A stretch of 44,729 nucleotides of DNA from a virus: IMG/VR virus record IMGVR_UViG_3300013947_000009, positions 1 through 44,729 of that record; one strand, written 5' to 3'. Shown in pieces: positions 15,599-44,635 of the stretch. Position 1 is the first letter of the stretch; every line of letters begins with the position of its first letter. The position numbers and the translations under genes are program-made. The notes under the pieces are model-generated. The model searched no databases. It saw nothing but the letters and a program-made list of their open reading frames with translations, and had not been told where the DNA came from.

Positions 15599-16603
15599 AT
15601 GAGAAGAGCAAATGGAGAAGGTTCGATTTTTAAATTAGGCGGAAAACGGCGAAAACCATGGGCCGTTAGAATCACAACCGGATATGAAGATGACGGTAAA
15701 CAGATTTATAAATATGTTGGATATTACCCAACCAAGACAGAAGCTAAAGAAGCAATGAGGGAATACTTAGTCAATCCATTCAATTTGGATCATAAGAGCA
15801 CAAAGCTCAAGGACGTTTATGATAGATGGTTAGACCAAGCTGATCTTGCTCAAACGACATTGCAAAGTTATACGTCCGCCTTTAATCAGGCGAAGCAATT
15901 ACATAACATGAACATGAGAGATATTAAGGCCGTACATCTGGAAGCAGCCATGGACCAGATGAAACCGCACATGCGCAGCGTATTTAAAAATGCAATGGGA
16001 AAAGTATACATATATGCTATCAAGCACGAAATTGTTGATAAGGACATCGTGAGTCTAATTTCAATTAAAACTATGGTTGAAACAAGAGAGAAAACTCCAT
16101 TCACTTTGGCTGAGATTAACAAGTTAAAATCTTTCAAGCATCCATTAAATGATACCGTTTTCATTTTGCTTTATACCGGAATGCGGATCAATGAATTGCT
16201 TGAGATTAAATGTGAAAATGTTTACTTAGATAAAAGGTATATGATTGGGGGTAAAAAGACGAAAGCCGGACAAAATCGAGTTATCCCAATTCACAATGCG
16301 ATTTATCCTTTGATTAAAGCGAGATATGAACAGGGGAATAAATACCTGATAACAAAGGATAATAAGAAAATCAGTTACGCTACATATCGGATCAGTTATT
16401 GGAACAAGATGACCTCAGCTCTGAAATTCAAACATACTCCCCATGATACTCGACACACGTTTACCACATTTGCAGATAGATATGAGGTTAATAAGGTTGC
16501 ACTGAAAAGAATTCTCGGGCACACATTAAACGACACGACTGATCACTATACGCATAAGGACCTCAGCGAATTATTGACTGAGATCAACAAAATTGAATAT
16601 TAA
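15599..16603 (+). CDS. int: Tyrosine recombinase / phage integrase with AP2-like N-terminal arm-binding domain
   Basis: N-terminal GSIFK...KPWAVRIT; catalytic-domain R...HDTRHTF...LGH...HYTH. Confidence 0.92.
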   Translation: MRRANGEGSIFKLGGKRRKPWAVRITTGYEDDGKQIYKYVGYYPTKTEAKEAMREYLVNPFNLDHKSTKLKDVYDRWLDQADLAQTTLQSYTSAFNQAKQLHNMNMRDIKAVHLEAAMDQMKPHMRSVFKNAMGKVYIYAIKHEIVDKDIVSLISIKTMVETREKTPFTLAEINKLKSFKHPLNDTVFILLYTGMRINELLEIKCENVYLDKRYMIGGKKTKAGQNRVIPIHNAIYPLIKARYEQGNKYLITKDNKKISYATYRISYWNKMTSALKFKHTPHDTRHTFTTFADRYEVNKVALKRILGHTLNDTTDHYTHKDLSELLTEINKIEY

Positions 16604-17150: not shown

Positions 17151-17179
17151 ATTATACAACTTTAGTTGTAGTTTGTACA
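17151..17179 (-). promoter_or_regulatory. P1: family promoter TGTACA-17-TATAAT with dyad TACAAC-N4-GTTGTA in the spacer
   Basis: Hexamers and dyad read on the - strand. Confidence 0.7.
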
Positions 17180-17402
17180 TAGGCAAAATGCACAAAGATA
17201 TATTTATTTTTTGTGTATATTTATTGTATATTATAGGTGCTTTTTCATACGTTTTTATACATTCTTAAACGTTGTTATATCAATGTTCCTTTTGATTTTA
17301 TACACTTTTTAAATTTTCCCAACAAAATTTAAGAATGTGATAACGTCAACGTTTGTATGTTGATTTGTATATTGCAAGCATATTGCAGAATAGAAAATGA
17401 AA

Positions 17403-17428
17403 AAAGCAGCTCAAATGAGCTGCTTCAT
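17403..17428 (-). terminator. Rho-independent terminator after 17430-17906
   Basis: agcagctca-aat-gagctgct followed by a T-run on the - strand. Confidence 0.8.
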
Positions 17429-17429
17429 A

Positions 17430-17906
17430 TTATTTGGATTTTCTTGTTGGCGTGGTAAATGCTCTCTCGACTGACCAACCCATCTTGTAGATACGTCCAT
17501 ACAATGTATTTGGCGACATTCCGAGCTCTTCGCCCCATTTGCAAATATTCTGAGCTTTTCCATCGTACTCAATTAACGCCCCGCGCTTCGGTTTTGGAGG
17601 AGCAACGATTTCAAGCGACAATTCTTCTTGCTTCGTTTTAACCTCGTCGCGTTCTGGCTCATTTTCTGTTGAGTCTTGATTAGTTATATTGTTTTCAACT
17701 TCGATTGATTCTGACGCGTTCTGGGTAGCAAACTGCGGAAACTCTTTTTCTATATCGTAGTCGGGATTTTTATCGGTTTTATCACCGATCGCGATTGAGA
17801 TTTTTTCAACCAATTTGTCTTTTTTCAGATTCCACCAGTTGCTGACTTGCAAGCCTTTCGCCATTTCTTTGAGGTCTTTCGCTTTCATTTCGTTAAGATT
17901 AATCAT
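17430..17906 (-). CDS. DNA-binding protein with SAP/Rho_N-like N-terminus and C-terminal HTH-like domain, 158 aa
   Basis: LNEMKAKDLKEMAKGL; C-terminal ICKWGEELGMSPNTLYGRIYKMGWSVERA; ATG 17906 follows AAGGAG. Confidence 0.6.
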   Translation of the reverse strand: MINLNEMKAKDLKEMAKGLQVSNWWNLKKDKLVEKISIAIGDKTDKNPDYDIEKEFPQFATQNASESIEVENNITNQDSTENEPERDEVKTKQEELSLEIVAPPKPKRGALIEYDGKAQNICKWGEELGMSPNTLYGRIYKMGWSVERAFTTPTRKSK

Positions 17907-17954
17907 GTTTATATCTCCTTCAAAAATCATATTCGGTGGTTAACCGTTGATTTA

Positions 17955-17983
17955 ATTATACAACGATAGTTGTAGTTTGTACA
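17955..17983 (-). promoter_or_regulatory. P2: family promoter TGTACA-17-TATAAT with dyad
   Basis: gtgTGTACAaactacaactatcgttgTATAATtaaa on the - strand. Confidence 0.7.
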
Positions 17984-18037
17984 CACTTTTGACCCACTTT
18001 TAATATTTTTTAATATGTTATAATTAAGTCATATCAT

Positions 18038-18066
18038 TGTACTATCTACAACCAACGTTGTACTAT
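18038..18066 (+). promoter_or_regulatory. P3: family promoter variant TGTACT-17-TACTAT with dyad TACAAC-caac-GTTGTA
   Basis: Divergent from P2; followed by the 16-bp palindrome ttaggcatatgcctaa in the leader. Confidence 0.55.
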
Positions 18067-18104
18067 TATATTAGGCATATGCCTAATTCATAGGAGGGGA
18101 GAAA

Positions 18105-18368
18105 ATGGAAGATATGACACGGTTAGAAATATTAACATTGTTGTTATCACTTAAAGGATTGCTTGAGACTAACAATGCAGAAAAAGCCTTAGAAGTAATT
18201 AACAACGTAATTGCTGAAGCACAACGGAAAGAATTATGAAAGAATGATGATCTAAGAATCTATATTGCAATCTTAGAATCTGAACGAATCCAAAGAGAGA
18301 ATGGCAACCTCATGTATGATTTCGATGAGTTCGCTGCCGAAGTAAGAAAAAAATACGGTATAAAATAA
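18105..18368 (+). pseudogene. 87-codon reading frame interrupted by one in-frame TGA (18237-18239): a 44-aa product, or a nonsense/readthrough gene
   Basis: Hand translation; the 42 codons after the TGA stay in frame, have no start of their own, and end at a terminator. Confidence 0.5.
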
Positions 18369-18390
18369 AGGGACCCTCATGGGTCCCTTT
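18367..18390. terminator. Bidirectional terminator hairpin
   Basis: aaagggaccc-tcat-gggtcccttt between convergent genes. Confidence 0.8.
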
Positions 18391-18997
18391 ATTTATATTG
18401 AATGAATTCCTCTCCGCATTCATCACATGTAGCTTTGATCTCATATATGCTATAGAATTTTACTCCGCAGCACGGACACATATAATATTTATATTTTGAT
18501 TTGGCAGTTGAACGGTCAGCTTTCTTTTTCGGAGCTCTTGCTAAATCGAAACCTTTGATTGTGACATTCTCATCAATCCATTTTTCAAGCTCTTCGCTCA
18601 GACTTGTTTTGGACCAACCGATGTTACCTTGCTTTTCAATTACAAGGCCGTGAGCTTCGGCTGTCTCTTTGAATTTCTTATTGTGATATCTTCCATTTGC
18701 ACCTGTATCTTTAACGCCGTTGTAGATGTTATCCAGATGAACCATTTCGTGAATCAGTGTTCCGCAGATTTCTTTAATTCCTCTGTTTAAATGCTCTGCG
18801 CAGATGTTGATCTCGTAAAATTCTTCATCGCTTGATTTCCAGATTTTCTGAGTCGTGCACCAACCATAAGAGCGATTTGACGTGTCCGGCGAAATTGTGA
18901 TTACGGGTTTTTCGAGCTTTCCATCGAACAGATGCGCGTTGAACGTATCAAAAAGTTCCTCAAGTGTTTTTACTGCCTCGTAATATTTTTTAGTCAT
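18389..18997 (-). CDS. SprT-like zinc metalloprotease domain protein with C-terminal zinc ribbon
   Basis: LIHEMVHL (HExxH), SprT-like N-terminal NAHLFDGKL, CPCCG...CDECG. Confidence 0.75.
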   Translation of the reverse strand: MTKKYYEAVKTLEELFDTFNAHLFDGKLEKPVITISPDTSNRSYGWCTTQKIWKSSDEEFYEINICAEHLNRGIKEICGTLIHEMVHLDNIYNGVKDTGANGRYHNKKFKETAEAHGLVIEKQGNIGWSKTSLSEELEKWIDENVTIKGFDLARAPKKKADRSTAKSKYKYYMCPCCGVKFYSIYEIKATCDECGEEFIQYK

Positions 18998-19029
18998 TTT
19001 TAATTACCTCCGTTTGATTTGATATACTT

Positions 19030-19058
19030 ATTATACAACTAAAGTTGTATAATGTACA
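19030..19058 (-). promoter_or_regulatory. P4: family promoter TGTACA-17-TATAAT with perfect dyad
   Basis: ctaTGTACAttatacaactttagttgTATAATaag on the - strand. Confidence 0.75.
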
Positions 19059-19091
19059 TAGTTTTTCCTGATTTCTAATATTTTTTAATAA

Positions 19092-19112
19092 TGTAACCCA
19101 TGCAAATTTCAA
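19092..19112. repeat. 21-bp inverted repeat, left arm (partner 20480-20500)
   Basis: tgtaacccatgcaaatttcaa is the exact reverse complement of ttgaaatttgcatgggttaca. Confidence 0.9.
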
Positions 19113-19135
19113 GAATATTTAAATTTCCATTTTAG

Positions 19136-19176
19136 TACAACTTTCGTTGTACATTATACAACTATCGTTATATAAT
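19136..19176 (+). promoter_or_regulatory. P5: family promoter TGTACA-17-TATAAT with two dyads (19136-19151, 19157-19172)
   Basis: agTACAACtttcGTTGTACAttaTACAACtatcGTTATATAAT. Confidence 0.75.
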
Positions 19177-19223
19177 AAGAATATAAGCTAATCAAGCTTA
19201 ATAACTTTCGAGGAGAGATTAAA

Positions 19224-19397
19224 ATGATTGAAAATGAATTATTGCTAGAACTACTTTGGGAATTTGAACAACGTGAGACTGATTATACGATTGAGAATGG
19301 TTGGTTAACGACATATCTCGGTAATGAGCGAATTCGTTTCAGAATTGATGACGAAGATCAAACAGACTGGCTGTTAGATATGATTTGGAATTGGTAA
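19224..19397 (+). CDS. Small hypothetical protein, 57 aa
   Basis: Hand translation MIENELLLELLWEFEQRETDYTIENGWLTTYLGNERIRFRIDDEDQTDWLLDMIWNW; GAGGAG RBS. Confidence 0.55.
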   Translation: MIENELLLELLWEFEQRETDYTIENGWLTTYLGNERIRFRIDDEDQTDWLLDMIWNW

Positions 19398-19448
19398 TAA
19401 AACGGAGGACTTTCGTCCTCCTCTAATTAAAAATATGGGGGAATTAAA

Positions 19449-19616
19449 ATGAACAAATACAGAGTTTGGTTTACAATTTATACGCAGTATTACGGTTACG
19501 ATGAAGATTATCTCGACGTTGAAGCTGCAAATGCTGATCAAGCATACGAAAATGTGAGAAATGCGAATTCCGACGTACATGGATTTAATATTGAAAGTGT
19601 AGAACCTCTCGATTGA
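19449..19616 (+). CDS. Small hypothetical protein, 55 aa
   Basis: Hand translation MNKYRVWFTIYTQYYGYDEDYLDVEAANADQAYENVRNANSDVHGFNIESVEPLD; GGGGGA RBS; terminator follows. Confidence 0.55.
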   Translation: MNKYRVWFTIYTQYYGYDEDYLDVEAANADQAYENVRNANSDVHGFNIESVEPLD

Positions 19617-19630
19617 GAGGTTTTTTATTT
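19603..19630 (+). terminator. Rho-independent terminator
   Basis: aacctctc-gatt-gagaggtt followed by tttttt. Confidence 0.85.
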
Positions 19631-19652
19631 GCAAAAAAAAATTTATTTTTTA

Positions 19653-19693
19653 TACAACTAACAGTGTACAAAGTACACTTTTCGTTGTATAAT
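19653..19693 (+). promoter_or_regulatory. P6: family promoter TGTACA-17-TATAAT with two imperfect dyads
   Basis: TACAACtaacAGTGTACAaagTACACTtttcGTTGTATAAT; leader nearly identical to that of P5. Confidence 0.7.
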
Positions 19694-19740
19694 TATATTA
19701 TAAGCTAATCAAGCTTAATAACTTTTAGGGAGAGATTAAA

Positions 19741-19929
19741 ATGATATTTAGATTTGCGGAAATGCTTTACGACATGTTTGGTGATGACTACGAAGGTATG
19801 ATTGAAACTTTCATGAGTGACTTACATCGTCAAAATAAAGAAGATCTTGGTCTTGATGAATTATTCATCGAGTTTGGTGAATATCTCGAAGCTTGCAAAA
19901 TCATGGCAAAAGTATTTAACCAAGAATAA
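19741..19929 (+). CDS. Small acidic hypothetical protein, 62 aa
   Basis: ORF track; RBS GGGAGAG; hairpin 19934-19951 downstream. Confidence 0.6.
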   Translation: MIFRFAEMLYDMFGDDYEGMIETFMSDLHRQNKEDLGLDELFIEFGEYLEACKIMAKVFNQE

Positions 19930-19972
19930 AAATGAGGGCCTTCGGGCCCTTGATAATAAAGGGGAAATTAAA

Positions 19973-20239
19973 GTGAAATTTAAGCTTGGTCAATTGGTGG
20001 CGACAAGAGGTATCAATGCGAGGCTATTAGAGGATTCTGACTTTTCAAAGTTCCTTTGGGATAGTTTTGCCAGATATAAAAATTGCGATTGGGGAGATAT
20101 TCCTCATGAGGACAAGAAAATGAACGATTCAGCAGTGAAAAACAATGACGACAGAATTGTTGCGCGATATAATAATATCTATATCATCACTGAGTATGAT
20201 CGTTCAGTAACTACCATTTTATTTACACACGAATATTGA
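19973..20239 (+). CDS. Conserved plasmid/phage small protein (GDWG ... ITE.DRS.TT motif), 88 aa, GTG start
   Basis: ATRGI...CDWGDIPHEDKKMND...IYIITEYDRSVTTILFTHEY; GGGGAA RBS before GTG 19973. Confidence 0.6.
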   Translation: MKFKLGQLVATRGINARLLEDSDFSKFLWDSFARYKNCDWGDIPHEDKKMNDSAVKNNDDRIVARYNNIYIITEYDRSVTTILFTHEY

Positions 20240-20249
20240 GGAGGTAAAA

Positions 20250-20483
20250 ATGAGTAAATTGAAAAAAATGAGACAGGCTAAAGGTCTGTCTCAATCTCAG
20301 TTGGCAGAAAAAGCCGACATGAATGTTCGCGTATTACAGCATTATGAGCAAGGTTCGAAGAATTTTGATCATGCTCGCATTGACAAAATTTTACGCGTTT
20401 GTTTGGCATTAAATTGCAAATTCGAGGATATTATTGAAAATCAAGAATATATTGATTTAATTAAACGGTATGAAGATTTTTGA
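20250..20483 (+). CDS. XRE-family HTH regulator, 77 aa
   Basis: GLSQSQLAEKADMNVRVLQHYEQG HTH_3 motif. Confidence 0.85.
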   Translation: MSKLKKMRQAKGLSQSQLAEKADMNVRVLQHYEQGSKNFDHARIDKILRVCLALNCKFEDIIENQEYIDLIKRYEDF

Positions 20484-20500
20484 AATTTGCATGGGTTACA
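20480..20500. repeat. 21-bp inverted repeat, right arm (partner 19092-19112); overlaps the stop codon of the HTH gene
   Basis: Exact reverse complement. Confidence 0.9.
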
Positions 20501-20506
20501 CTGCTG

Positions 20507-20536
20507 AAAAAGCTCCTCGTTCTGAGGAGCTTTTTT
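20507..20536. terminator. Bidirectional rho-independent terminator
   Basis: aaaaagctcctc-gttct-gaggagctttttt. Confidence 0.85.
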
Positions 20537-20717
20537 ATAGAAGAATATCAAATAGGTAGTCCAGCTCGAGCCCAAGCTCATCTGCAAGAATATCTTCTGC
20601 TTCAGTAAGAGGACTTTTAAGAATCATTTCTCTCACTTCATCGACCCGTGCTATTGCATCTTCTAATGCCATGCCATCTCTTTCCACTAAGATTATGACT
20701 ATTTTGTGTTTGCGCAT
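20535..20717 (-). CDS. Small hypothetical protein, 60 aa
   Basis: ORF track; promoter P7 upstream. Confidence 0.55.
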   Translation of the reverse strand: MRKHKIVIILVERDGMALEDAIARVDEVREMILKSPLTEAEDILADELGLELDYLFDILL

Positions 20718-20750
20718 TTTTAATTACCTTCTTTCGTTTGGTGTGATTAT

Positions 20751-20779
20751 ATTATACAACAAAAGTTGTATAATGTACA
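20751..20779 (-). promoter_or_regulatory. P7: family promoter TGTACA-17-TATAAT with perfect dyad
   Basis: aaTGTACAttatacaacttttgttgTATAATataatc on the - strand. Confidence 0.75.
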
Positions 20780-43322: not shown

Positions 43323-43393
43323 ATTATACTGAGAAAATTTTCCTTTTTACATACACATGGTGTGACATACCTTGTGACATACCTTGTGACATT
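43323..43393 (-). promoter_or_regulatory. Candidate activator-dependent late promoter: -10 TATAAT (43323-43328), weak -35 TGTAAA, and 2.75 copies of a 12-bp direct repeat (43361-43393)
   Basis: tgtgacatacct tgtgacatacct tgtgacatt; located upstream of the first late gene. Confidence 0.55.
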
Positions 43394-43494
43394 GCAAATT
43401 GATAATAAACAAAGCAATCTTCTCGATCATGCCCCGTGTCTCCAAAACCATAGCCCAGACGCATTTTATTGCTCACTTAATAAAACTATATAGG

Positions 43495-44182: not shown

Positions 44183-44211
44183 ATTATACACTTAAAGTTG
44201 TACAATGTACA
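44183..44211 (-). promoter_or_regulatory. P8: family promoter TGTACA-17-TATAAT with dyad (one mismatch), outside the accessory island
   Basis: taTGTACAttgtacaactttaagtgTATAATataaa on the - strand. Confidence 0.7.
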
Positions 44212-44245
44212 TACTTTTCGCAAGTTTCTAATATTTCTTAATAAT

Positions 44246-44635
44246 TCACAGAAAAAGTTCGCGGATAACATCATCGGCGAAAATATAAGTTTTGAGCTTG
44301 TTAATCAGTCGCGTTTTATTCCGGCTCACGCTTGTAACCGTCACGTCAAAAAATTCAGCAACCTCTTCTCGGGTCCTGCCTTCAAAATATATCATCGGGA
44401 TAATATCGAAATAATCGTCATCTTGTATTTGTTTGAGTGCTTCGTCAATAATCTCAATGAAACGTGTTGCAGTACCTTCTTCACTATGAGCCTTTTTCAA
44501 ATTATTATAGTCTCGGAGAACCTTCTCAGTCTTCTGAAAAGTACTTTGCTGCTCGTCTTTCATTAGCCTTGCCATTTTCAATTTGGATATGGTCTGATCA
44601 ATCGTCTCTGAGATTATTTCACGGATATCTTCCAT
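44246..44635 (-). CDS. ArpU/RinA-like or sigma-70 region-4-like late transcription regulator, 129 aa
   Basis: IPMIYFEGRTREEVAEFFDVTVTSVSRNKTRLINKL region-4 HTH; size and position upstream of the packaging genes. Confidence 0.7.
   Translation of the reverse strand: MEDIREIISETIDQTISKLKMARLMKDEQQSTFQKTEKVLRDYNNLKKAHSEEGTATRFIEIIDEALKQIQDDDYFDIIPMIYFEGRTREEVAEFFDVTVTSVSRNKTRLINKLKTYIFADDVIRELFL

Follow-up and report, generated by a model that had tools for sequence, protein, structure and literature searches.

Introduction

Anti-CRISPR operons end in genes for Aca proteins, small helix-turn-helix (HTH) autorepressors that bind inverted repeats in the acr promoter (PMC6765145). According to a 2026 study, most Aca families are predicted to control up to three neighboring operons of putative anti-defense genes (PMC13551039). 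Regulation of adjacent operons has been reported for Aca11 and Aca13 (PMC12282945); taken together, control of several operons is predicted for Aca1-Aca12 and shown for Aca11, Aca13, and Aca14 (PMC6765145, PMC9410906, PMC12282945, PMC13551039). A related design is found on Bacillus plasmids of the pLS20 clade II: Reg576 of plasmid p576, a ribbon-helix-helix (RHH) protein, represses its own and three other strong promoters, its own less strictly, and binds direct-repeat dual motifs TTATCCC-N2-TTATCCC that flank the promoter (PMC8708921). The establishment operons of this clade vary between plasmids, with only reg and ardC being conserved (PMC8708921). Here we analyze a 44,729-nucleotide stretch of viral DNA (IMG/VR record IMGVR_UViG_3300013947_000009, positions 1 to 44,729), referred to as the window in its full length, in which eight copies of one promoter-operator element stand in front of short units of small genes. 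The element consists of the promoter TGTACA-N17-TATAAT and an embedded TACAAC-N4-GTTGTA dyad, and one of the units ends with the gene for a 77-amino-acid (aa) XRE-family HTH protein, XRE77, which we examine as the candidate repressor. As a whole, the system is likely an autorepressor-controlled accessory or establishment regulon and thus of a kind already known.

Eight promoter-operator elements in the window

The 44.7-kb window contains six exact copies of the 16-bp dyad TACAAC-N4-GTTGTA, compared to an expectation of 0.00 in 100 dinucleotide-preserving shuffles, and seven exact copies of the promoter TGTACA-N17-TATAAT, again with 0.00 expected. When up to two mismatches are allowed, the dyad yields 11 matches versus 1.8 expected: Ten of them lie inside the elements listed below, and the remaining one, at 16066, looks like a chance match. 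The core of the cassette is composed of the -35 hexamer TGTACA and a 17-bp spacer containing the dyad, the right arm of which enters the -10 hexamer (GTTGTATAAT). The dyad extends from about -27 to -11 and overlaps the -10 hexamer; as judged from this layout, it occupies a repressing position in a promoter with the optimal 17-bp spacer. In a scan with a generic sigma-70 consensus the elements rank at the top, seven sites matching 10 of 12 hexamer positions at a spacing of 17 bp. With near-consensus hexamers, a spacing within the range of 16-18 bp, and a gene downstream, the elements have the sequence features of sigma-A (sigma-70) promoters, and we infer that they are read by the sigma-A-type RNA polymerase holoenzyme of the host.

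When the copies are aligned on the element, a Shine-Dalgarno sequence and a start codon follow 30-50 nt past the -10 hexamer in every case. Seven short transcription units make up an island of the genome, and the eighth is located elsewhere, between a sigma-70-region-4-like gene and the holin/terminase arm. The layout of a unit comprises an A/T-rich upstream stretch, the promoter-operator, a short leader, a ribosome-binding site (RBS), one to three small genes, and a hairpin terminator. Such terminators are enriched in the island (14 versus 2.0 expected), and a strong one closes each unit. Two elements contain an additional dyad (19136-19151 and 19653-19668), which overlaps the -35 hexamer and lies exactly 21 bp upstream of the promoter-proximal one. 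A previous sequence-only reading of the window had listed the eight elements, all with a 17-nt spacer that is filled by a dyad overlapping the -10 hexamer, with two dyads each at 19136-19176 and 19653-19693, and with an RBS-linked small gene downstream of every copy. This description holds for all elements, their positions, and their strands. Regarding the hexamers, seven copies are exact TGTACA-N17-TATAAT, and the copy at 18038-18066 is a variant with a perfect dyad. The elements and the open reading frames (ORFs) that they are predicted to drive are as follows:

P1, 17151-17179 (- strand): TGTACA-N17-TATAAT with a perfect dyad at 17155-17170; by position, it serves a 52-aa ORF (17104-16946, -) and probably also an 83-aa ORF (16881-16630, -).
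P2, 17955-17983 (-): perfect dyad at 17959-17974; followed by 17906-17430 (-), a 158-aa Rho_N/SAP-like protein with a C-terminal HTH-like domain, and a terminator at 17403-17426.
P3, 18038-18066 (+): weaker variant TGTACT-N17-TACTAT with a perfect dyad at 18047-18062, back-to-back with P2; followed by a 44-aa ORF (18105-18239, +), a TGA codon, an in-frame, antitoxin-like putative relic of 42 codons (18240-18368, +), and a terminator at 18366-18392.
P4, 19030-19058 (-): perfect dyad at 19034-19049 within the 24-bp palindrome ATTATACAAC-N4-GTTGTATAAT; followed by 18997-18389 (-), a 202-aa SprT-like zinc metalloprotease with a C-terminal zinc ribbon.
P5, 19136-19176 (+): dyads at 19136-19151, over the -35 hexamer, and at 19157-19172, with 21 bp from one to the next; followed by acidic ORFs of 57 aa (19224-19397, +) and 55 aa (19449-19616, +) and a terminator at 19601-19624.
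P6, 19653-19693 (+): promoter of the regulator operon; its two dyads (19653-19668 and 19674-19689) are slightly degenerate and lie 21 bp apart.
Genes 1 and 2 of the regulator operon (+), driven by P6: a 62-aa acidic ORF (19741-19929) and an 88-aa ORF (19973-20239).
XRE77, 20250-20483 (+): 77-aa XRE-family HTH protein, last gene of the P6 operon.
Bidirectional hairpin terminator, 20505-20537 (both strands): -22.7 kcal/mol, z = -4.45; closes the XRE77 operon (+) and the 60-aa unit (-).
P7, 20751-20779 (-): perfect dyad at 20755-20770; drives a 60-aa acidic ORF (20717-20535, -).
P8, 44183-44211 (-), outside the island: dyad at 44187-44202 with two mismatches; drives a 94-aa ORF (44147-43863, -).

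XRE77 as the candidate repressor

Relatives of the window were gathered in two scans of IMG/VR, one with TACAACNNNNGTTGTATAAT and the other with the XRE protein. This search for the motif in related genomes, which the sequence-only reading had proposed, yielded about 15 related phages, 42-46 kb in size and with 3-11 copies each, for a total of 67 distinct copies. The family consensus reads TGTACAa..TACAACtat.GTTGTATAAT: The half-sites and the -35 and -10 hexamers carry much information, the linker of 3 nt, the four central positions, and the flanks carry little, whereby the values are inflated because the profiled copies were pre-selected by the motif itself.

XRE77 is an HTH_3 protein (E = 6.6e-10) with the recognition helix NVRVLQHYEQG. 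Its nearest relatives of solved structure are C.BclI, CylR2, C.AhdI, SinR, and HipB, a list that includes dimeric operator binders; the matches to C.BclI and C.AhdI have E-values of 4e-5 to 6e-4. The family counts 519 homologs among metagenome proteins at E <= 1e-5. Among the proteins of the window, XRE77 is the one whose occurrence follows that of the dyad, in most cases accompanied by the 88-aa ORF directly upstream. The XRE77 gene is found at 70-91% identity in every related contig whose neighboring DNA was covered, and dyad and XRE77 are both kept in phages that have an integrase of only 36-38% identity and no detectable CI homolog in the DNA examined. More distant XRE homologs with 46-61% identity retain the recognition helix NVRVLQHYEQG, and across all homologs that are accompanied by the dyad this helix follows the pattern N-x-R-V/T-L/I-Q-x-Y-E-Q-G.

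The distant loci were then used for phylogenetic footprinting with a weight matrix of the dyad, which was built from 64 copies and scanned over each locus in its entirety. In L128 and L129, from a high-GC phage, and in L133, a contig from a metagenome-assembled genome (MAG) of Flexilinea (Chloroflexota), the XRE protein is the only protein in common with the window. In all three loci the single best match is located in the XRE operon's own promoter, in the same register and with the right arm running into TATAAT: The score is 13.1 in L128 (next best 5.6), 11.6 in L129 (next best 1.3), and 9.7 in L133 (next best 1.9). In L127, the top two matches flank the XRE promoter. Moreover, in L002, L037, L084, and L099 a 49%-identical XRE gene beside an IS30 transposase has, 30 nt upstream, a perfect TTGACA-TTA-TACAAC-AAAA-GTTGTA-TAAT. 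A de novo search of the distant XRE loci for repeated perfect dyads had returned nothing; the degenerate sites were found later by the matrix scan. Because of its co-occurrence with the dyad and the phylogenetic footprinting, XRE77, which the sequence-only reading had named as a candidate binder, is strongly favored, and we consider it the probable cognate repressor of the dyad. The other candidate named there, the protein encoded at 17430-17906, is disfavored, since it is absent from distant loci that retain the dyad.

Several observations weigh against this assignment. An analysis of covariation between recognition helix and half-site was uninformative as both are nearly invariant. Furthermore, Streptococcus prophages such as SpSL1 carry the identical 24-bp palindrome ATTATACAAC-N4-GTTGTATAAT once, between the lysin gene and attP, where it forms part of operons with a TTGACA/TATAAT promoter (L096, 3655-4205; L147, that is SpSL1, NC_027396, 18659-19210). 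In SpSL1 the promoter is followed by two tiny ORFs and the gene of a 63-aa HTH protein (gp21) unrelated to XRE77, and a homolog of XRE77 was undetectable anywhere in the complete SpSL1 genome. The palindrome can hence occur without XRE77, so that sequence alone is no proof of XRE77 binding. It may be a coincidence: In a palindrome anchored on TATAAT, freedom is left only for CAAC/GTTG, which is what the search selected for. Alternatively, the same site may have been reached by convergence of an unrelated HTH protein. The SpSL1 operon looks like an analogous autoregulated mini-operon that has not been described previously. Under both interpretations the architecture agrees, with an operator over the -10 hexamer of a strong promoter, small ORFs, a small terminal HTH gene, and a location at the prophage end, and this suggests that the design is widespread in Firmicutes phages. 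Finally, the strict use of TGTACA instead of TTGACA as -35 hexamer in this lineage finds no explanation in a model based on XRE77.

Conserved cassettes and variable cargo

The first genes downstream of 61 copies fall into 30 unrelated clusters; the cassette is thus conserved while the cargo turns over. Most of these clusters are orphans of 37-100 aa, and 69% of the orphans have an isoelectric point (pI) below 5.5; in the relatives the clusters also include ParE toxin, DUF932, DUF2786+DUF7168, and Amidoligase_2 proteins. The window itself shows the same picture: Next to the Rho_N/SAP-like protein (158 aa), the SprT-like zinc protease (202 aa), and the XRE protein (77 aa), its cargo consists of ORFs of 52, 83, 44, 57, 55, 62, 88, 60, and 94 aa, most of which are acidic (pI 4.1-5.3). 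Searches of the small ORFs of the window against Pfam, PHROGs, and PADLOC gave no functional annotation, with no library aimed at anti-CRISPR or anti-defense proteins being searched, and no cargo protein matched any characterized anti-defense protein. Tentatively, the cargo would most plausibly serve host takeover, anti-defense, or establishment, and an anti-defense role appears plausible.

Three of the cargo genes deserve a closer look. The SprT-like domain of the 202-aa protein is recognized by Pfam with E = 2.5e-8, and its gene is present in only 2 of 12 related loci. A relation to ArdC found no support: The protein has no sequence match among PDB chains at E <= 0.1, and its best fold match, selecase, is non-significant (E = 0.54), so that only the assignment to the Pfam family is supported. 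Some of its homologs (P0330-P0336; related to 18389-18997 of the window) appear in the records with an XRE HTH domain fused to their N-terminus. We take these fusions to be probable gene-calling artifacts, because the same SprT protein is also recorded as a fusion to unrelated downstream sequence. Stop codons that are recoded in that phage lineage, or gene calls that read through them, could account for the records; by analogy with ImmA/ImmR, protease and repressor could also be truly paired.

Ten of 12 related loci contain the 88-aa ORF, in most cases directly upstream of the XRE gene. It has no match in Pfam, PHROGs, NCBIfam, PADLOC, or PDB sequences. Its structure model has a predicted local distance difference test value (pLDDT) of 91.6 and the order strand-helix-helix-helix-three-strand. 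The significant structural matches of this model are exclusively uncharacterized viral proteins; matches to the RelE/HigB fold are non-significant, with E about 1 and a template modeling (TM) score of about 0.4.

Downstream of P3, the 42 codons that follow the TGA (region 18105-18368) have no start codon of their own, and the same arrangement is seen in the relatives L016 and L090. In L051, the equivalent 42 codons form the C-terminus of a longer ORF that, judged by eye, resembles a Phd/YefM-type antitoxin. The stretch is probably a recombination relic, and read-through of the TGA is possible.

A proposed negative-feedback circuit

A second dyad located exactly 21 bp upstream, which corresponds to two helical turns and places it over the -35 hexamer, is present in 14 of the 16 regulator-module promoters of the lineage. 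The promoter-proximal dyads of the regulator modules have on average 1.0-1.2 mismatches versus 0.51 in the single-dyad cargo promoters (p = 0.003-0.02, for copies that are not phylogenetically independent). This pattern of two dyads and weaker operators is as expected of a repressor under negative feedback. In the circuit that we propose, a dimer of XRE77 would bind the dyad, cover the promoter from about -27 to -11, and block open-complex formation at all eight promoters. As the product of the last gene of a unit that carries the same operator, XRE77 would be subject to negative feedback, acting at P6 on two weaker dyads that lie 21 bp apart on the same helix face. Whenever the repressor is absent, upon DNA entry or by dilution, all cassettes would fire together. 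With rising XRE77, the single strong operators of the cargo promoters would close first, and XRE77's own promoter would settle at a low set point via cooperative binding to its two weak sites. From binding onwards these steps are inferred, the set point and the shut-off by analogy with Aca proteins and Reg576.

A more far-reaching interpretation combines a portable repressor, the shuffling of promoter-operator plugs, and inter-phage exclusion in one joint claim, which we regard as conceivable but doubtful. Any small gene that gains the 29-bp plug may join the one-repressor regulon. Plugs in both orientations may recombine and thereby shuffle, invert, and exchange cassettes among phages of gut Clostridia, and recombination may also seed copies elsewhere, as in the case of copy 8. 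XRE77 from a prophage may then silence the plugs of a superinfecting relative and disarm its early counter-defense genes; this may constitute an "anti-anti-defense" type of inter-phage exclusion that is independent of CI immunity. Two features of the DNA are consistent with cassette shuffling by recombination between repeats: A 39-bp inverted repeat with 85% complementarity (19081-19119 / 20473-20511) brackets both two-dyad operons including XRE77, and in L090 the regulator module is inverted relative to the integrase when compared to the window.

Alternative explanations

The dyad might be bound by a host regulator common to Firmicutes or by another phage protein, with XRE77 being merely a piece of regulated cargo. 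SpSL1 and more than 25 metagenomic contigs speak for this, as they contain the identical palindrome in a sigma-A-type promoter, with no homolog of XRE77 in the complete genome. However, the dyad accompanies XRE77 into high-GC elements and into the Flexilinea (Chloroflexota) MAG contig, with which nothing else is common, and one host factor that acts across hosts so different is improbable in itself; the Streptococcus case, on the other hand, needs just a coincidence of 4 bp, the rest being -10 hexamer and its mirror, and has a terminal HTH gene of its own. We therefore think another binder unlikely. The distant loci likewise bear on the idea that the 158-aa SAP/Rho_N protein (17430-17906) regulates the family. 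This protein has a relative in all close relatives of the phage as well as in L127 and is itself driven by a cassette, but it is absent from L128/L129, L133, and L134, even though the dyad still resides in the XRE promoter of L128/L129, L133, and L099; the small ORFs around the L099 dyad yielded XRE-type proteins only. Its C-terminal domain matches an accessory DNA-binding domain of HNH endonucleases (phrog_3377) and not a dimeric operator binder, its middle region is highly variable in length (158-231 aa), and a role as the regulator is highly improbable. An even smaller chance is left to the sigma-70-region-4-like protein (44246-44635) as the factor that reads the TGTACA promoters, which would then form a middle or late class rather than a repressor-controlled one: TGTACA is strictly conserved and non-canonical, and the sigma-like gene adjoins copy 8, yet the protein matched only the C-terminal half of sigma models (regions 3-4) with no -10-reading region 2 detected, although the -10 hexamer is a perfect TATAAT. 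No close relatives of it were found in IMG/VR, where the promoter family is common, and the dyad occurs with a canonical TTGACA in distant lineages; a better target would be the separate, dyad-less promoter of the holin/terminase genes, which is preceded by three 12-bp direct repeats. For its restriction to regions 3-4 and the lack of close IMG/VR relatives, the protein was rejected as a promoter-specific factor.

Other explanations concern the role of the dyad itself. The repeats might be copies of a strong promoter that spread with the cassettes by duplication or recombination, the dyad being a passenger without regulatory role. In line with this, copies from the same genome share additional flanking similarity, and copies in opposed orientation act as inverted repeats, the L090 regulator module being inverted relative to the integrase in comparison with the window. 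A passenger would, however, hardly be conserved in the way observed: The conserved positions are arranged symmetrically and do not extend beyond the half-sites, with drift in the central 4 nt and in the flanks, the dyad persists under a canonical -35 hexamer (TTGACA/TTGACT) in distant lineages, and the second dyad recurs at exactly 21 bp in the regulator's promoter, all of which makes this explanation very unlikely. We attach a similarly low probability to the proposal that the 88-aa ORF and XRE77 form a HigBA-like toxin-antitoxin pair, with the toxin first and the XRE antitoxin second, and that the dyad is primarily the operator of this pair. The order and sizes of the genes and their close linkage in 10 of 12 relatives would fit, RelE-type toxins are among the weak fold matches of the strand-helix-helix-helix-three-strand model, and ParE toxin cassettes stand under the same promoter in relatives. 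Yet, the fold matches are non-significant (see above), the 88-aa ORF is near neutral rather than basic, the XRE homologs of L127, L128, L133, and L099 retain the operator without the 88-aa ORF, and control of a toxin-antitoxin pair leaves seven further promoters unexplained. The reading in which XRE77 binds the dyad and represses its own and the cargo promoters is the one that we retain.

The CI/Cro switch and the setting of the island

The sequence-only reading had further claimed that the intergenic region of the repressor and cro genes lacks the dyad and that the circuit is separate from CI/Cro. Both claims have stood up: No dyad is present in the CI/cro intergenic region (543-818), which has repeats of its own (TTGTAAATTA / TAATTTACA), and the dyad is hence not an operator common to the divergent repressor and cro promoters, as would characterize a CI/Cro switch. 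Since, in addition, relatives without a detectable CI homolog in the DNA examined keep the dyad, its arrangement supports a regulon separate from CI/Cro. In L052 (4356-4882), L122, L070, and L126, whose integrase is 36-38% identical, there is no CI-type XRE gene between the integrase and cro genes, and the roughly 10 kb around the island contain no XRE-family gene besides the XRE77 homolog. The only LexA (Cheo-box)-like site of the window, CGAACGTGTGTTC, is located in its CI/cro region at 605-617; 25 of 100 shuffled sequences have at least one such site. Its position hints at a direct SOS input to the CI/cro switch, and a chance occurrence is possible. Control of the island by LexA was considered and rejected, as no Cheo-box-like site lies outside the CI/cro region and the dyad of the island is different from GAAC-N4-GTTC.

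The ends of the window share a 35-nt overlap, so that it is a circular assembly. The genome is that of a temperate, siphovirus-like phage with an uncultured human-gut Clostridia host. On the + strand, one arm comprises cro, replication genes, and the integrase in this order; on the - strand, the other arm comprises CI, the sigma-70-region-4-like gene, holin, terminase, structural genes, and the M23 lysin. The 4.2-kb island is located between integrase and lysin, where the two arms converge. P8 has the sigma-70-region-4-like gene (44635-44246) and the holin/terminase arm as its neighbors. The large terminase is 72% identical to that of a human-fecal phage without annotation and 47% identical to those of Butyrivibrio phages, and the sole close match among the entries of the genome collection is a human-gut Clostridia MAG, HGM12858. 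DNA searches of annotated phage records with the island, for both near and distant matches, gave no match, and no known RNA family was found in the window.

Some further sequence features were noted around the promoters. TGTACA is self-palindromic and could, at three of the - strand copies, also be the -35 hexamer of a weak back-to-back promoter (TGTACA-N17-TAATAT):

17978-18006 (+): possible back-to-back promoter TGTACA-N17-TAATAT.
19053-19081 (+): possible back-to-back promoter TGTACA-N17-TAATAT.
44206-44234 (+): possible back-to-back promoter TGTACA-N17-TAATAT.

The one at 44206 would be directed into the sigma-like gene in antisense orientation. Alternatively, the conserved AATATTAGAAA stretch may be an UP element. 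Hairpins at the predicted transcript starts (for example TAAGCT-AATCA-AGCTTA; 19177-19215, 19694-19735) vary in sequence and keep their pairing, and such 5'-leader hairpins are present in 39% of the cassette leaders versus 14% of shuffled leaders. As a conserved RNA motif that defines the cassette, the hairpin (TAAGCT-N5-AGCTTA) was rejected, because it is found in only about 40% of the cassettes and with varied sequences. These hairpins more likely act as 5' stabilizers of the mRNA, and they could also be protein-binding RNA motifs analogous to those reported for Aca2. In front of the holin/terminase arm, GTGACATACCTT is repeated twice exactly in tandem and followed by a third, partial copy, GTGACATTGC (43362-43395, 43323-43351, - strand); the repeats are located just upstream, on the - strand, of a dyad-less promoter TGTAAA-N17-TATAAT. 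They are likely the binding site of a late activator, perhaps of the sigma-70-region-4-like protein (44246-44635). In the island, an A/T-rich, non-coding stretch of 220 bp (17180-17400), about 600-800 bp from the integrase, contains repeated TTGTAT/TTGTATATT motifs and is a possible attP with arm-type sites.

Implications

If XRE77 controls the promoters, the dyad is a cheap computational tag for co-regulated accessory cargo in this widespread group of human-gut phages. Its approximately 30 cargo families, mostly small acidic orphans, provide a list of candidates for anti-defense and host-takeover screens in Clostridia, from which, to our knowledge, very few such proteins are known. The design of one autorepressor governing many variable operons would, if this reading is true, be extended to phages of anaerobic Firmicutes, with a promoter set that is unusually large and standardized in comparison to anti-CRISPR loci and to the establishment genes of Bacillus plasmids. 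Moreover, a repressible, compact, and strong 29-bp promoter together with a repressor of 77 residues could serve as a genetic tool.

Comparison with known systems

A literature search on the operator sequence brought up nothing relevant, and the comparison is hence one of design. The likeness to Aca systems extends over several levels: An operon of small accessory genes has the gene for a small DNA-binding protein at its 3' end, with XRE77 ending the 62-aa/88-aa/XRE77 operon and a terminator following; inverted repeats, often two, lie in or over the operon's strong promoter, as is the case for the dyads within 19653-19689, which overlap the -35 and -10 hexamers, and likewise for the distant XRE homologs; negative feedback is expected to result in a burst followed by shut-off; the same operator is found at neighboring operons of putatively anti-defense genes; and the locus resides in a variable region of a temperate phage. 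At the same time, there are differences. A known acr gene or a member of an Aca family was not identified in the window: Both single-sequence and profile searches of XRE77 against all PDB sequences returned generic XRE proteins, none of them named Aca, with hidden Markov models of Aca families not being searched. The window has 8 promoters and its relatives have 3-11, compared to the "up to three" operons reported for Aca proteins, promoter and operator are merged into a standardized 29-bp cassette, and one copy lies outside the island.

With Reg576 and the EGeRS2 arrangement the window would share one repressor over its own and several strong sigma-A promoters in front of highly variable operons; here the same operator is found at the promoters of the regulator and of the variable operons, eight in the window and 3-11 in the relatives, with 30 clusters of cargo. 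Repression by Reg576 is less strict at its own promoter, which is mirrored by the weaker operators of the regulator-module promoters, and the proposed purpose in both cases is transient expression after DNA entry. One of the cargo proteins in the window is a metalloprotease, SprT-like and without sequence or fold match to ArdC. The two systems differ in the regulator and its site, where an XRE HTH protein and a spacer-internal inverted repeat take the place of an RHH protein and dual heptamers, and in the element that carries them: a phage with eight promoters here, a conjugative plasmid with four there.

Controller (C) proteins of restriction-modification systems resemble XRE77 as a protein. 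C.BclI and C.AhdI, among its closest solved relatives, are XRE HTH dimers of about 75-80 aa; they have two adjacent dyads at their own promoter and are autoregulated, as is proposed for XRE77. However, this similarity exists only at the level of the HTH domain: The island has no restriction or modification genes, sequence and spacing of the operator are unlike those of C-boxes, and C proteins control one or two promoters, not eight. Among phages, the "stoperators" of mycobacteriophage L5, recognized by gp71, and the conserved inverted repeats of phiC31 are bound by the main immunity repressor, which silences lytic genes, and P22 has a second immunity region (immI, Arc/Mnt) with Arc as an autoregulated shut-off repressor. 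With these the window has in common that one phage-encoded repressor would act on many near-identical sites over the genome; in contrast to L5 and phiC31, its CI/Cro switch has other repeats without the dyad, and the controlled genes are accessory. By analogy, the system of the window appears to work like the Aca and Reg576 systems, without being a demonstrated member of either. What is notable about it is the number and uniformity of its promoter-operator cassettes and their abundance in human-gut phages.

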